A stretch of DNA of 54,871 nucleotides from contig JALWZB010000087.1 of the NCBI GenBank assembly GCA_027002995.1, positions 1 through 54,871 of the forward strand. The letters are read 5' to 3'. The stretch's first letter is position 1, and the number at the start of each line of letters is the position of its first letter. Positions 3,145 through 17,164 of the stretch are shown here, piece after piece. Position numbers and translations under genes: made by a program. The stretch is from Desulfurococcales archaeon (lineage in GTDB: Archaea > Thermoproteota > Thermoprotei_A > Sulfolobales > NBVN01). The notes beneath the pieces are model-generated. The model did no database searches, was not told the origin of the DNA, and was given only the letters and a program-made list of their open reading frames with translations.

Positions 3145-4096
3145 CTTAATTAAGGGTAGCGTCGCCGTTATTGGGGTAGGTGCTGTAGGTTCTGTCATTA
3201 CCTACGCGTTAAATGAAGTAGGCATTAAGCCAGTATTAATCCACAGGAATGCCCAAGTAGCTGAGCTCTATAGGGAGCATGGAATTAAGGTGGAGGTACT
3301 GGGTGAAGGAGAGAGAATTATTGAGGGTCTACACACAACGTACAGTAATGTTCAGCCAGGTTCGATAGGGCTTGCCTTCATCTGCGTTAAAGCATATGAC
3401 GTTAAGAACGTGTTAAGCAAGCTCCCCAGACTGCTTAACAGGGATTCTATCCTGATCATGTGCCAGAACGGTTTAGGCTCCACGGAACTCGCCGAGGAGA
3501 TCGTGGGTCCGAATAACGTTTTGCAAGCCATTATCGGGTTCGGAGCTAACCGCGTTAATAGGCATGAGGTTCGCCTCACCGGTATTGGCCCAAGCTACAT
3601 TGGCCCAAAACGTAGGAGGGCCCCCTCAACACTTCACGCAGTCGCAAGACACGTGTCGGAATTATTGCGCGTGATTAACTTCATCTACGTTGACGAGAGT
3701 GAGGGCTACAGATGGGTCAAGCTAGGCATTAACGCCGGGATTAACCCAGTGACGACAATACTCGGCGTTAAGAACGGGATTGTGAACGAGGATGTTTACG
3801 CCAGGAACGTTGCGTTAGCTGCTGCCAATGAGGTTAAGGAGGTGGCGGTCGCTAAGGGTGTGTCCTTACCTAAGGATCCGGCGGATGCGTTACTTAGCGT
3901 TGCCAGAAACACTGCCGAAAACTACTCATCCATGCTTCAAGACATAAGGTCAAGGAAGCGGACCGAGGTCGACTACATAAATGGTTCCGTGTACTTAGAG
4001 GGTCTTAAGGTTGGTAGAGTGTGTCTAGTTAATTACACTCTTTGGAACATCGTGAAGTTCTTGGAGAGAATTCGGCTTCGTGGCGTGTCACGGTAA
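3131..4096 (+). CDS. panE: 2-dehydropantoate 2-reductase (ketopantoate reductase)
   Basis: N-terminal Rossmann motif VIGVGAVGS, central NGLG, and C-terminal SSMLQDIRSRKRTEVDYINGSV typical of the ApbA/PanE family. It lies next to panB. Confidence 0.8.
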   Translation: MTARDLIKGSVAVIGVGAVGSVITYALNEVGIKPVLIHRNAQVAELYREHGIKVEVLGEGERIIEGLHTTYSNVQPGSIGLAFICVKAYDVKNVLSKLPRLLNRDSILIMCQNGLGSTELAEEIVGPNNVLQAIIGFGANRVNRHEVRLTGIGPSYIGPKRRRAPSTLHAVARHVSELLRVINFIYVDESEGYRWVKLGINAGINPVTTILGVKNGIVNEDVYARNVALAAANEVKEVAVAKGVSLPKDPADALLSVARNTAENYSSMLQDIRSRKRTEVDYINGSVYLEGLKVGRVCLVNYTLWNIVKFLERIRLRGVSR

Positions 4097-4123
4097 CATT
4101 AATTTAGCGTTACCCCCAGTATA

Positions 4124-4999
4124 TTGGCGATGGCTACGATGGGTGATAAGATACTTCCTCATTACTTCATTAAAATGAAGAAGAAAGGCAAGAAAATAGT
4201 CATGGTTACTGCGTACACTTACTACCAAGCTAAGGTGGTGGATGAGGCAGGTATTGATGGGATCTTAGTGGGTGACTCCTTAGGGATGGTGGTGCTAGGG
4301 TATTCCTCAACCTTGCCCGTGACTATGGATGACATCATGCATCACCTTAGGGCAGTAGTTAATGCGTCACCAAGAGCCTTAGTTGTTGCTGACATGCCGT
4401 TCCTAAGTTACGAGGTCAGCCGGGAGGAGGCTGTGCGTAACGCTGGCAAACTACTGAAGGCAGGGGCAGACGCGGTTAAGGTTGAGGGTGGTGAGGAGAT
4501 CTTAGATAAGGTTGAGGCGATGGTCAAGGCAGGAATACCGGTGATGGGGCACGTTGGTCTTAACCCTCAACGCTATCTAGTCCTAGGGGGCTACAAGCTT
4601 AGGGGTAAGAAAGCCGAGGATGCCATGGAGGTGATCGAAGCCGCTAAGGCTCTGGAGGATGTCGGTGCTTTCTCGGTGGTGATTGAGAATACCGTTGCTG
4701 AGGTAGCGGCGCAGGTGACCAAGGAACTACGCATACCTACGATATGCATTGGTGCAGGCCCTGACTGTGACGGGCAGATACTCGTGATTCATGATGTGTT
4801 AGGCTTAAACCCCACTCCCCCACCATTCGCCCGTAAGTATGCTGACCTGTATAACGTAATGATTGATGCCCTCAGGAGGTACGCTGAGGACGTGCGTAAA
4901 GGTGCTTTCCCCGCGGAGGGTGAGTACTGGAGCATGAGTGAGGAGGAGCTCAGCAAGCTCCGTGAGAAACTGGCTGTGAGGAAAGATGTTAAGGAGTGA
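4124..4999 (+). CDS. panB: 3-methyl-2-oxobutanoate hydroxymethyltransferase
   Basis: [48 protein letters not shown] and KVEGG are classic PanB blocks. Confidence 0.9.
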
Positions 5000-14406: not shown

Positions 14407-14607
14407 AGAACCCGCAAACCACACGCAACCCCCCCACTCCTAGCTAAGAACGAAGTAAAGGTTTTGGTTCACCTAACCGATTAATCGCTAAATCCGCATT
14501 ACTAGATACTTATTCCCTAACCTAATCAAAGTATAAAACATATGCTCTTCTCATCGTGAGGTTAAGAAGTGGTGGGGGGCACCCACACACTGGTAGCGGG
14601 GGGTGGA

Positions 14608-14640
14608 CTCTCACGGGCTGGCTTCCAATCACCAGCCCGA
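14608..14640 (-). other. tRNA intron 3 at position 59/60 in the T-loop (33 nt)
   Basis: Textbook hBHBh' motif. The T-stem GGUGG/CCACC is the outer helix. The central helix is UUCA/UGAG (4 bp). The bulges are AA|U and AG|U. The inner helix is 8 bp, CGGGCUGG/CCAGCCCG. Confidence 0.8.
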
Positions 14641-14660
14641 TTTGAACCACCGACCTCGGG

Positions 14661-14680
14661 CTCGACCCCCTTATAGGGGC
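14661..14680 (-). other. tRNA intron 2 at position 39/40 (20 nt)
   Basis: Compact BHB. Outer helix CGG (14689-14687)/CCG (14659-14657). Central helix AGAC/GUCG (3 bp plus a mismatch). Bulges AC|G and AG|C. Hairpin CCCCU-AUA-AGGGG. Confidence 0.7.
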
Positions 14681-14682
14681 GT

Positions 14683-16045
14683 GTCTCCGAGGCGGGCGGC
14701 CCGGCCATCTTGTAACTCGTATAGTCAGCTTATATACTTTCTGTGAATTCTATTAATTCGGAAACTAATTCTGCAACTTTAACTAAGCACCTAAAACTAA
14801 TTATAAATAAACTTTACGATTTTGTCAATCACAGCAACTTTCTCTAAATTACGAGAGCGTGTGAGAATGTCTATTGCTTCCCTTAATGAATCCCTGCACT
14901 TTTCTGTGATTTTAACCATCACCCTCTTATGGCTCACTATAGGTTTGGGCTTCAATTCGCTGTGCTCGCCAAGCCAGAGAGTTCTTACCCTATCAAAGGC
15001 TTCACGTTGCAGGTATAATACCAATACCTTACTCCTCCGAGGCTCCTTTCTTCGCTGAATATACGCTGAGCTTGCAGCTGTTATCAAACGCTGAAGTTCT
15101 CCCACCGTAAATCCGCATTCATAGTTCTTAGCCCAGTTAAGCAAGTATCTCTGTAGCCGCGCCCTTCTGATAGGATGGAATACTAATTCTAAACAGTTTC
15201 TAGCGAAATCCATTTTCAGGAACCTGAAGGAGACTTCATAATTCGGTCTCCCACGATATGTTCCAAGTACGATATATCCTCTTTGTTCGGCGTGTGTCAG
15301 GATGGAGTAAATCGTCCTCCCCTTTACGCTCCCTCCTTTAGCCACAGATACTGCAAGGTACTTTCCCTCCTTACCCACATATCCGTCTCCATCAATTAGA
15401 CCCGCAAGTAAGGCAGAGATGTAGGTACTGTCAAGACCATGTAGGTCGAACTGCCGGGACATCAGTACGTGAAGTAATTGAAGCAGGCTATCACGTTGTT
15501 TACGAAAAGTACCTTTGCTTAGGACGCTGATGCTAAAGTATCTTTTCTTCCCTCTGCTTTGAGGATAGATTCTCACTCTCAAGTAGGCGCGTAAGGGAAG
15601 GAAGGTCATTATCACCGCTATAGAGGTCTCCTTCGTGACACCCCTGAAAGTTATTGTTTTATATCCGCCGATCAGTGCAGAGAGATTCCCATCACATAAG
15701 ATTAGGCCAATGCTCTTCCATAGATACCTAGCCATAAGGTGAGGGCTGAGTTTATGATCATCATCATAATAAAACAGAGTTAGAGCATTATTTTTCTGAA
15801 TGGACTCAAGGATATCACCAATCAGTTCTTTATCAAGGTTCCGAAGTCTAACGACCCTCTCCATACTTCCTAACGCTCCCAGTCTTATAGGTAGCTTAAT
15901 AAAGTGAGTGTCTTTACTGATGACTATGTTCGGTTTACAATTAATATTGTGCGCTCTGACTAAATGTCTCAAACTTAAGCAACTTGAGAGCCAGGAGAAC
16001 GAAGTTAAAGGATGCGTGGGTGGTGCCGGGCCGCCCGGGGCCTCT
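14683..16045 (-). other. tRNA intron 1 at canonical position 37/38 (1,363 nt), carrying the homing endonuclease ORF
   Basis: The BHB has three helices. The anticodon stem is CGGGG/CCCCG. The central helix pairs CUCA (16051-16048) with GGAG (14688-14685): 3 bp plus one A.G mismatch. The bulges are UA|A and AC|A. The inner helix is GAGG (16044-16041)/CCUC (14692-14689). A CCC bulge follows, then a 13-bp all-GC helix, 16037-16025 with 14705-14693. Confidence 0.8.
14797..15972 (-). CDS. LAGLIDADG homing endonuclease, two-motif monomeric type, intron-encoded
   Basis: 391 aa from TTG, or 355 aa from the ATG at 15864. The first motif is KSIGLILCDGNL. The second is ISALLAGLIDGDGYVGK, about 100 aa downstream. 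The ORF is AT-rich with T-ending codons, unlike the GC-rich tRNA exons and the neighbouring genes. Confidence 0.85.
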   Translation of the reverse strand: MRHLVRAHNINCKPNIVISKDTHFIKLPIRLGALGSMERVVRLRNLDKELIGDILESIQKNNALTLFYYDDDHKLSPHLMARYLWKSIGLILCDGNLSALIGGYKTITFRGVTKETSIAVIMTFLPLRAYLRVRIYPQSRGKKRYFSISVLSKGTFRKQRDSLLQLLHVLMSRQFDLHGLDSTYISALLAGLIDGDGYVGKEGKYLAVSVAKGGSVKGRTIYSILTHAEQRGYIVLGTYRGRPNYEVSFRFLKMDFARNCLELVFHPIRRARLQRYLLNWAKNYECGFTVGELQRLITAASSAYIQRRKEPRRSKVLVLYLQREAFDRVRTLWLGEHSELKPKPIVSHKRVMVKITEKCRDSLREAIDILTRSRNLEKVAVIDKIVKFIYN

Positions 16046-16117
16046 TATGAGCCCCGCGGGCTGCCTGGCTACCCCACCCCGCTGCTTTGGCCCCCCGTTC
16101 TTTGTGGGGTTGTTTGG

Positions 16118-16124
16118 TTTTTAA
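16118..16124 (-). promoter_or_regulatory. candidate TATA box for the tRNA-iMet gene
   Basis: Minus-strand TTAAAAA lies 35-41 nt upstream of tRNA position 1, consistent with a short leader. It overlaps the stop codon of the upstream gene. Confidence 0.3.
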
Positions 16125-17164
16125 GTTTTGGTGTCTTGCTCTATTGTGTGAATTACTGTTTTACGTGCTTCTTGCTTGGCTTTTAGCCAGTCTGGTTTTG
16201 CTTGGGGTCCTGTGCCGTATAGTTTCGCGATTGTTAGTTCTAGGTCGAGTTCCGTTACTATGCCTGCTTTGTGTGCGGCGTTAAGCATCTCGTTCAGCGT
16301 TTTAGTGTGTTTTATTGTTTGGGGTAGTACGGTGACCTCCATTACGGTGTCTGTTTTGAGTACGTAGGTTATGGGTGTGTGGGGACCTATCCTGACGGTT
16401 CGGCTTCTTTCCCTTATGGCCACCTCGCCTACCTCCCCTCTTAACGCGTGGTACGCTGCCTTACCTGCCTCGGTGGTTGCTTTGGGTAGGATTTCCTCGT
16501 ATATTCTTAGGTGATCGCGCCAGAGCCCGACCGCGCCCAAGTACCCTCCCCGCTTCATGATCTCCTCAATTCTCCTGAGGACGTAGTCAGCCGGGAGCTC
16601 CCCGTCAGCCCCCGGAGCCAGGACAGCCACCGAGGAGTCGCTGAAGTGGGAGACAGCAGCGACGCTAACCGCGTCAGCCAGCGGGGACCAGAGGGAGGGC
16701 TCCCACCCCCTAGCTAGGACATCGCCGCCAACATCCAGTGCCATCAAGTGCGAGTACCCAGCCTCCCTGACCTCCTCCAGGCACTCAACAACGCCTAAGA
16801 CACCGCCCTCCAGGGTGAAGGCGGGGATCTCACCACCGAAAACCTCCGCAACGACGGAGGCGTTAGGGCGGAAAACGTAGTCCCCAGGCCTCTCAACGTA
16901 AGTGTCCTTAGACACCCATACGCACTTACCCACCCTAGCACCCCTAACGGCGTCCTTAGGCACAGGCCCGGGGAACGGGTCCTTAACCCATCGCTCCCAA
17001 AGCAGCGCCACAGGAACGCAGGACTCAACCCCAAAGAGGTCCTCGAGAACCCTACACATAACGTAAGCAGAGATAATATCCCCAGCACCACCCGCACCCA
17101 ACACAGCCACGCCCGAATCCCGAATCCTTGAAATGAATTCAGCCACACTCAAGCACCACGCCAA
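16121..17164 (-). CDS. conserved archaeal hypothetical protein (DUF1152-like)
   Basis: 347 aa. The N-terminal VAVLGAGGAGDIISA glycine-rich motif resembles the DUF1152 family. There is a sharp codon-composition switch near 16512 (see findings). Confidence 0.5.
   Translation of the reverse strand: MAWCLSVAEFISRIRDSGVAVLGAGGAGDIISAYVMCRVLEDLFGVESCVPVALLWERWVKDPFPGPVPKDAVRGARVGKCVWVSKDTYVERPGDYVFRPNASVVAEVFGGEIPAFTLEGGVLGVVECLEEVREAGYSHLMALDVGGDVLARGWEPSLWSPLADAVSVAAVSHFSDSSVAVLAPGADGELPADYVLRRIEEIMKRGGYLGAVGLWRDHLRIYEEILPKATTEAGKAAYHALRGEVGEVAIRERSRTVRIGPHTPITYVLKTDTVMEVTVLPQTIKHTKTLNEMLNAAHKAGIVTELDLELTIAKLYGTGPQAKPDWLKAKQEARKTVIHTIEQDTKT

Follow-up and report, generated by a model that had tools for sequence, protein, structure and literature searches.

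Introns in archaeal tRNA genes are short, at 11–129 nt with a median of 15 nt (Chan et al., 2011; PMC3218864), and in reviews and surveys homing endonucleases are described only in the bulge-helix-bulge (BHB) introns of rRNA genes. In Aeropyrum pernix, the adjacent halves of a split tRNA-Asp gene are separated at 37/38 with an hBHBh′ motif and a 14-bp G/C stem; an internal B recognition element (BRE) and TATA box lies 20–25 nt before the 3′ end, and separate half transcripts are seen on northern blots (Chan, Cozen and Lowe; PMC3218864). The initiator tRNA-Met (tRNA-iMet) gene has known break points at 37/38 in Nanoarchaeum equitans, where it is split, and at 59/60 and 37/38 in Thermofilum pendens, where it is permuted (PMC3218864, Table 1). 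The present analysis concerns a tRNA-iMet gene on the minus strand of contig JALWZB010000087.1 from an uncultivated, heat-loving Desulfurococcales archaeon, the whole 54,871-nt (54.9-kb) stretch of which is referred to here as the window. This is very probably a working initiator tRNA gene that is cut at 37/38 by a 1,363-bp BHB element encoding an I-DmoI-like LAGLIDADG protein.

An earlier reading of this DNA (the original prediction) proposed a tRNA-iMet gene with three introns, at 37/38, 39/40 and 59/60, and this is confirmed. When the minus-strand exons 16083–16046, 14682–14681, 14660–14641 and 14607–14591 are joined, they form a 77-nt sequence that ARAGORN identifies as tRNA-Met(CAT) with a flawless cloverleaf, in which the sole stem pair that is not perfect is one G·U in the D stem. 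The predicted initiator signature (CAU anticodon, A1:U72, G29–31:C39–41, and an encoded CCA) can be read off the spliced sequence. The A1:U72 pair and the three G:C pairs at 29–31:39–41 are defining features of archaeal initiator tRNAs, and all are kept in every relative. Exon 1 (16046–16083) provides tRNA positions 1–37 and includes one additional D-loop nucleotide, exon 2 (14681–14682) is the dinucleotide A38-C39, required by the G31:C39 pair, exon 3 (14641–14660) provides positions 40–59, and exon 4 (14591–14607) provides positions 60–76 including the encoded CCA. The intron-less tRNA-iMet gene sequence is GCGGGGCTCATAACCCCGAGG.

In its unspliced form the gene is not detected by standard tools. 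No tRNA was reported by ARAGORN in the whole window with long introns allowed, so that the tRNA-finder check suggested in the original prediction gives tRNA-Met(CAT) on the spliced sequence and a blank on the gene as it stands. Likewise, at the gathering threshold Rfam identified no known RNA family in the window, and relaxing the cut-off to E≤10 between 14300 and 16300 gave no genuine match. No second tRNA-iMet copy is present within the window.

The relatives were compared by inspecting their junction regions and counting covariation; a naive spliced alignment of the mature tRNA to each locus was dropped, since it misplaced the micro-exons and created spurious introns. The same exon set flanks homologous open reading frames (ORFs) in more than 25 independent contigs, therefore a chance arrangement is excluded. 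Exon 1 is the same in the related loci L001 and L012 and has at most 3 nt changes, at D-arm positions, in distant relatives, where these 1–3 changes retain pairing (for example, U13·G22 to C13:G22). The AC of exon 2 is found at the same place in 12 of the 12 sequences of the alignment used for structural comparison (A2), and exon 3 is identical in all loci examined. In L010, the exon segments searched (20 + 20 + 17 nt) match the window exactly, while identity is 54 % for the ORF and 61 % for the DUF1152 protein encoded next to the tRNA gene. Across lineages generally, the exons are identical or nearly so while ORF identity drops to about 35 %. One locus differs at the 3′ end: L014 (3565–3626) has no encoded CCA and, after GCUA, the sequence runs on as UUUCCCCGG; here the naive aligner had put an odd 25-nt gap after position 73.

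The 37/38 intron (14683–16045, minus strand) is of the BHB type, with a G+C content of 44 % versus 69 % in the exons, and its 1,363 nt are roughly tenfold the length of the longest archaeal tRNA intron recorded. The BHB geometry applied here comprises two 3-nt bulges with 4 bp between them and a cut after the second bulge nucleotide. As predicted, at six out of six junctions in the three introns the cut site follows the second of the three bulge nucleotides, with two of the central helices relaxed: the 4-bp helix is perfect at 59/60, and consists of 3 bp plus an A·G at 37/38 and at 39/40. For the 37/38 intron, the bulges are U36-A37|A and A-C|A38, and the central helix is made up of C32:G, U33:A, and C34:G with the A35·G mismatch. 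The inner helix h′ pairs GAGG (16044–16041) with CCUC (14692–14689) and is followed by a CCC bulge and then by a closing helix of 13 bp, all G/C, with its 5′ strand at 16025–16037 and its 3′ strand, the predicted 5′ leader of a 3′-half transcript, at 14693–14705; both helices are present as had been predicted. Placing exon 2 at 14684–14683, for an intron of 1,361 nt, was rejected because it puts C34 opposite a C in the central helix, whereas 14682–14681 gives a BHB. A single composite intron from 37/38 to 39/40 was also rejected, since it would lose A38 and C39 and wreck the anticodon loop.

These structures are supported by covariation among the 12 sequences of A2. All 12 aligned pairs of the G/C stem are 100 % paired, five of them with compensatory changes, and 92 % of cells in the 37/38 structure are paired compared with 31–53 % when the partners are slid. 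The covariation score was matched in none of 500 shuffles; in addition to the five compensatory pairs of the G/C stem, there are four in helices H and h′ of the 20-nt mini-intron at 39/40 (14661–14680, minus strand). This mini-intron forms no BHB with the spliced anticodon loop but a good one with the unspliced big intron, in which the outer helix pairs CCUCGG, from the last nucleotides of the big intron, with C41–G46, the central helix is (A·G)GAC/GUC, and the inner helix is CCCC/GGGG. In this conformer 95 % of cells are paired, with nine compensatory pairs, and the central helix AGAC/GUCG is replaced by AGAU/AUCG in L014, while L015 has a perfect GGAU/AUCC.

The two BHB folds are mutually exclusive and have one segment in common, CCUCGGAGAC (14683–14692, minus strand), which can be seen as a switch. 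In one fold, its CCUC pairs with GAGG in h′ of the big intron and its GAG, including the G·A35 mismatch, with C32–C34; in the other, CCUCGG pairs with C41–G46 as helix h of the mini-intron and GAC pairs with the mini-intron GUC. The segment is nearly invariant among 12 distinct sequences. Minimum free energy folds give both conformers in outline, and folding of the 3′-half RNA recovers the h and h′ helices of the mini-intron. Because CCUCGGAGAC serves two exclusive folds, and the BHB of the 39/40 intron forms only with the 3′ end of the big intron, the 39/40 intron would be the first to be removed, its BHB being built with the last 10 nt of the big element (CCUCGG:41–46); afterwards the anticodon stem and the 37/38 BHB could form.

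The third intron, at 59/60 (14608–14640, minus strand), is 33 nt long with a perfect hBHBh′ and, from comparison with close relatives in which a second LAGLIDADG intron is intact, is interpreted as an ORF-less remnant of that intron. At this position, L001 has an intron of 778 nt (4190–4967) and L013 one of 801 nt (3722–4522). The 59/60 intron of L001 contains an ORF (4271–4879) for a 202-aa protein that passes Pfam LAGLIDADG_3 (E=6.5e-14). The window 33-nt intron and the L001 778-nt intron share an 8-bp helix base (CGGGCUGG/CCAGCCCG) and a 3′ UGAGAG. A similar 32-nt intron is present in L008, and many lineages have none at 59/60. The 59/60 intron is therefore seen full, as a remnant, and empty, which are the states expected of a homing cycle. 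The L001 tRNA gene thus carries two endonuclease genes, and its 202-aa protein is unrelated to the one encoded at 37/38. Further introns interrupt the gene in other relatives. There is an extra intron near 30/31 in L004 (2782–2816), a locus without the 39/40 and 59/60 introns, where exon 2 runs straight into exon 3, and there are introns at 64/65 in L006 (4184–4214), L015 (1567–1595), and L016. Sequence comparison thus marks the tRNA-iMet gene of this clade as an intron hotspot with at least five positions.

Within the 37/38 intron, the frame of 391 codons that was originally predicted does exist, from TTG at 15972, with the motifs GLILCDGNL (residue 89) and LAGLIDGDGY (residue 189). The start was placed differently from the prediction: homologues begin with MERVV (for example, P0001), therefore the ATG at 15864 is taken as the start, for an ORF at 14797–15864 (minus strand) of 355 codons plus the stop. 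Besides the two canonical motifs, its product has one more LAGLIDADG-like domain, in which the motif is degenerate. The Asp that ends each motif (GLILCDG and LAGLIDGDG) is invariant in 13 family sequences, and LAGLIDADG_3 is matched by six of the 13 family members at E≤0.01, with a best E of 1e-5. The AlphaFold2 model, based on the family alignment, has a predicted local distance difference test (pLDDT) score of 88 and a predicted template modelling (pTM) score of 0.81. When this model was compared with PDB by Foldseek, roughly the top 37 matches were all of the LAGLIDADG fold, including homing endonucleases, the bI3 maturase, and WhiA. The top matches were PI-PfuI, PI-SceI, I-AniI, and I-DmoI, at a probability of 0.97–1.0 although with E-values of only about 1e-3, and the template modelling score on I-DmoI as target was about 0.55. 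The modelled fold is unambiguously an I-DmoI-like LAGLIDADG double domain, with the order alpha-beta-beta-alpha-beta-beta-alpha.

The C-terminal 143 residues (14800–15228, minus strand), when modelled alone, have a pLDDT of 89.6 and I-DmoI as the best match, at a probability of 0.99. This region again has the order alpha-beta-beta-alpha-beta-beta-alpha; it has no Pfam match and contains a degenerate 'AASSAYIDxR' helix. The modelled protein thus seems to have three LAGLIDADG-type domains, the third being non-catalytic. Three such domains within one protein are unusual.

The window ORF has 12 homologues with 35–96 % identity, and the comparison with related genomes that the original prediction suggested gave the same result throughout: all homologues with readable flanking DNA occupy position 37/38 in a tRNA-iMet gene. 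Contigs encoding homologues provided six more such contexts. The family is present in 10 GTDB species representatives, all of which are metagenome-assembled genomes (MAGs), eight titled Desulfurococcales or Desulfurococcaceae and two Thermoprotei or Thermoproteota; at least one is named for Guaymas and several have similar sample codes. In 16 JGI metagenome contigs with complete upstream sequence, the introns are 1,022–1,275 nt long, each with a LAGLIDADG-motif ORF. Eleven of 30 matches from the metagenome DNA scan were rejected as chance, having no tRNA exon nearby. The closest relative is JALVVU010000114 (GCA_027023255.1), which shares the order DUF1152, tRNA, SDH-type protease. A profile search of a 5.8-billion-protein set found no relatives beyond the family of tRNA-iMet intron ORFs, and only one family member has a source name, 'hypothetical protein'. 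The original prediction regarded the element as a mobile intron of the rRNA type. No sign of an rRNA origin was found, and the family was encountered only in tRNA-iMet, so this part is not supported. In L007 (4669–6936), a T2SSE-type ATPase gene near the tRNA locus holds an intein with LAGLIDADG_3 (precomputed Pfam), a further element of the homing type in the vicinity.

The 37/38 element may be mobile, as was predicted. Three states are seen for the sister intron at 59/60, but the divergence of the 37/38 element tracks that of its host. Identities of the ORF and of the host DUF1152 protein are 96 and 98 %, 91 and 93 %, and 54 and 61 %, which fits long vertical residence over recent spread, and by this comparison the element now appears to be vertically inherited. 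The ratio of nonsynonymous to synonymous substitution rates (dN/dS) is 0.22–0.26 against close relatives, and the ORF is under purifying selection. In L021 (2501–3222), the ORF homologue is split over two frames, by a frameshift or a sequencing error, while the closing helix, promoter-like box, and exons are all intact.

Promoter-like elements are present both outside and inside the gene. A BRE/TATA-like box, AAAACTTAAAAAC (16117–16129, minus strand), with its start 46 nt and its end 33 nt upstream of the mature 5′ end, probably serves as the tRNA gene promoter; both element and spacing are kept in 13 of 14 listed loci, these being the 13 with enough upstream DNA. A very similar box, AAAGTATATAAGC (14728–14740, minus strand), begins 35 nt ahead of the G/C-stem 3′ strand and is the only match of the pattern in the window intron. 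All 15 distinct loci have a match to the pattern between −37 and −32 relative to the helix anchor; the frequency of the pattern elsewhere in these introns, 0.0017 per nucleotide, gives a chance expectation of 0.019 per 11-nt stretch. The spacing from box to ORF stop varies from 0 nt, with overlap in L006, to 85 nt, and the sequence that separates box from helix shows no conservation. At the usual archaeal spacing, the internal box would put the transcription start on the first nucleotide of the stem strand.

Other elements may delimit transcripts. A pyrimidine-rich tract follows the 5′ helix strand (15995–16024, minus strand) and is a possible terminator of a 5′-half transcript; it is 73 % pyrimidine in the window and 53–87 % in 21 distinct loci, versus 40–47 % in the rest of the intron. 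Two TATA-like boxes, CTTTATTAAGC and CCTATAAGA (15883–15904, minus strand), are positioned upstream of the ORF as its putative promoter, and boxes of the CTTTATAA type were seen by eye upstream of the ORF in some relatives. The same three-part layout is present in the 59/60 intron of L001. A G/C strand in the 5′ leader, GGGGGGC (16090–16096, minus strand), is complementary to one in the 3′ trailer, GCCCCCC (14574–14580, minus strand). In 19 of 20 distinct loci, leader (−13/−14) and trailer have a perfect match of 7–10 nt, of two covarying types, GGGGGGC/GCCCCCC and GGCGGGG/CCCCGCC, and the leader strand starts approximately at the predicted transcription start. This pairing could clamp the precursor, help the halves to be joined, or contribute to a terminator hairpin. 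A BHB between leader and trailer at the tRNA termini was considered and rejected by hand, as its 4-bp helix fails to form.

Taken together, these observations suggest how the gene may be expressed. EndA would cut at the bulges and RtcB would ligate the exons, and the forced order, in which the 39/40 intron leaves first, would guard the 2-nt exon against release; the 59/60 intron would be spliced independently. There may be three transcription units. One would be the 5′ half, stopping at the pyrimidine tract, another the endonuclease mRNA, read from a TATA box of its own, and the last the 3′ half, driven by the internal BRE/TATA box. Since the internal box and the stem layout match the A. pernix split tRNA-Asp, there is roughly an even chance that the halves are, at least in part, made as separate transcripts that are then joined in trans; read-through in cis may occur as well. 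The protein presumably once drove homing into intron-less tRNA-iMet genes, in which the DNA of the anticodon stem-loop is a pseudo-palindrome. The internal box, the forced splice order, and the ORF-bearing relative of the 59/60 intron were not part of the original prediction.

A number of observations weigh against this interpretation. Splicing, splice order, and transcript boundaries are all inferred from sequence, and a second tRNA-iMet gene may exist elsewhere in the genome. The central 4-bp helices at 37/38 and 39/40 each contain one A·G mismatch and are therefore relaxed versions of the BHB. In the pyrimidine-rich tract, T runs are only 2–5 nt long, which is weak for a terminator. No ORF-less or intron-less 37/38 allele was found in about 26 loci, in searches keyed on the ORF or on the intron 3′ end, by which intron-less alleles would therefore be missed. 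The assignment of the window protein to LAGLIDADG is supported by the fold and the invariant motif acids, yet the protein itself scores 15.9 bits (E=0.016) against Pfam LAGLIDADG_3, below the cut-off of 22.5. A profile failure of this kind had been named in the original prediction as grounds for refuting it; six of 13 relatives do match, however, and the modelled fold is unambiguous. A single-sequence search of PDB gave only noise, and a profile search of PDB gave marginal matches, to an I-DmoI/I-CreI chimera and 2dch.

Other explanations of the locus differ mainly in how the gene is transcribed and in what the protein does. It may be purely cis-spliced from one 1.5-kb precursor initiated at the upstream promoter. 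The internal boxes would then serve the endonuclease mRNA only, or nothing, and the intron, once excised, would be the message for the endonuclease, a route already proposed for rRNA introns of Crenarchaeota. The two halves share a strand and are separated by 1.4 kb in which no strong oligo-T terminator occurs; those crenarchaeal rRNA introns that hold LAGLIDADG ORFs undergo splicing in cis (PMC4496867), and the A. pernix split tRNA-Asp too yields a rare read-through precursor (PMC3218864). However, the internal box keeps a fixed distance from the 3′ helix strand in all 15 distinct loci while its distance to the ORF stop ranges over 0–85 nt and the DNA between box and helix is unconserved, which is hard to explain without positioning of a start at the helix. 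Expression exclusively in cis is accordingly given slightly less than an even chance. For the ORF, a domesticated rather than selfish gene has to be considered, with a host or intron role such as a maturase-like helper in folding or splicing, or a DNA-binding factor. The identity of the ORF tracks that of the host protein, dN/dS is about 0.25, no ORF-less 37/38 intron is seen among the roughly 26 loci, there is the additional third LAGLIDADG-like domain without a catalytic motif, and the Foldseek matches include the bI3 maturase and WhiA. On the other hand, both catalytic acids are invariant, and in L021 the RNA elements are kept beside a frameshifted ORF, which would make it dispensable there unless this is a sequencing error. 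Protein-assisted splicing is not known for BHB introns, and domestication is considered rather unlikely.

The locus would have a different meaning if the mobile element had killed this copy and a normal tRNA-iMet gene worked elsewhere. Standard tRNA finders are blank at the locus, as could be expected for a disrupted pseudogene, and the window covers 54.9 kb of the genome, but the exons are identical or nearly so and the cloverleaf is kept where the ORF is only 35–54 % identical, the helices of the splice motifs have compensatory changes, and the promoter and the leader and trailer elements are conserved. This combination of exon constancy, compensatory helix changes, and conserved promoter is not expected of a dead gene, and a pseudogene is therefore highly improbable. 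A self-splicing group I or group II intron would have precedents, as group I introns interrupt cyanobacterial tRNA-fMet, and group I introns in bacterial initiator tRNA and archaeal rRNA genes often have LAGLIDADG ORFs (PMC6125680). In this case, however, no group I or group II covariance model in Rfam is matched, in the window at the gathering threshold or between 14300 and 16300 even at E≤10, which argues against such an intron; the ends form a BHB with 3-nt bulges exactly at the junctions, and the non-coding parts beyond the terminal helices are short and unconserved. The probability of a group I or group II intron is thus close to nil. A functional tRNA-iMet gene cut by an endonuclease-bearing BHB element is the preferred interpretation.

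This family breaks two rules, that tRNA introns are non-coding and 11–129 nt long, and that homing-endonuclease genes are reported only in rRNA BHB introns, and it does so in the tRNA that is required for every protein synthesis event. Full-text searches of the literature turned up no archaeal tRNA intron reported to hold an endonuclease ORF, in agreement with the original prediction, and no link between split tRNAs and homing endonucleases. The RNA switch segment would impose a built-in splice order. There is also an annotation blind spot: with ARAGORN and Rfam silent at such loci, checks of tRNA complement or completeness in MAGs would wrongly score the initiator tRNA as missing.

From its internal promoter signals, the gene may be a stage toward a split tRNA gene. 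An 'agent' for the recent splitting of tRNA genes in Desulfurococcales was postulated by Chan et al. (2011; PMC3218864), and the family described here is a concrete candidate, making the debate over whether split tRNAs are early or late directly testable. It is conceivable, though it is put forward only tentatively, that endonuclease-bearing BHB elements create split and permuted tRNA genes, the tRNA-iMet family being the missing intermediate with collinear halves that have their own promoters and complementary G/C leaders and are kept apart by an endonuclease gene. At 37/38 and 59/60, the ORF-bearing sites fall exactly where the split tRNA-iMet of N. equitans and the permuted tRNA-iMet of T. 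pendens are broken, and this match is suggestive.

Among described systems, the crenarchaeal rRNA BHB introns, such as that of I-DmoI in the Desulfurococcus mobilis 23S rRNA gene and those of the I-PorI and I-ApeI types, are alike in having a BHB, a stable closing helix, and splicing by proteins, as well as an internal double-motif LAGLIDADG ORF for a protein with an I-DmoI-like fold, in a highly conserved RNA gene of a hyperthermophilic crenarchaeal host. They differ in the host gene, which is an rRNA rather than a tRNA gene, and in their proteins of about 190–220 aa, compared with about 355 aa and a third LAGLIDADG-like domain. The sequence family here is found only in tRNA-iMet and, unlike in those introns, a conserved internal promoter-like box precedes the 3′ helix strand.

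The split tRNA-Asp of A. pernix is likewise from Desulfurococcales and is divided at 37/38, with an hBHBh′ followed by a G/C stem (13–14 bp between the two cases) and a same-strand internal BRE/TATA that resembles the upstream promoter and predicts a start about 20–25 nt before the end of the 'intron'. However, its spacer is 121 nt and non-coding, as against 1,363 nt with a LAGLIDADG gene, its separate transcripts were shown by northern blot where those of the window are inferred, and the 3′ half in the window contains two more introns. Multi-intron tRNAs of Thermoproteales and Asgard archaea also have up to three BHB introns, with non-canonical sites such as 59/60 and relaxed motifs, but the known introns are 11–129 nt long and none has an ORF, whereas here one motif uses the 3′ end of the neighbouring intron and leaves a 2-nt exon. 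The tRNA-iMet genes of N. equitans and T. pendens share with the window gene both the tRNA species and the two break points, but their pieces are separated or permuted and have no endonuclease gene, while the pieces here are collinear. Overall, the locus combines features of known kinds: it is a BHB intron with a LAGLIDADG gene, sited in a tRNA, with the features of a split tRNA.

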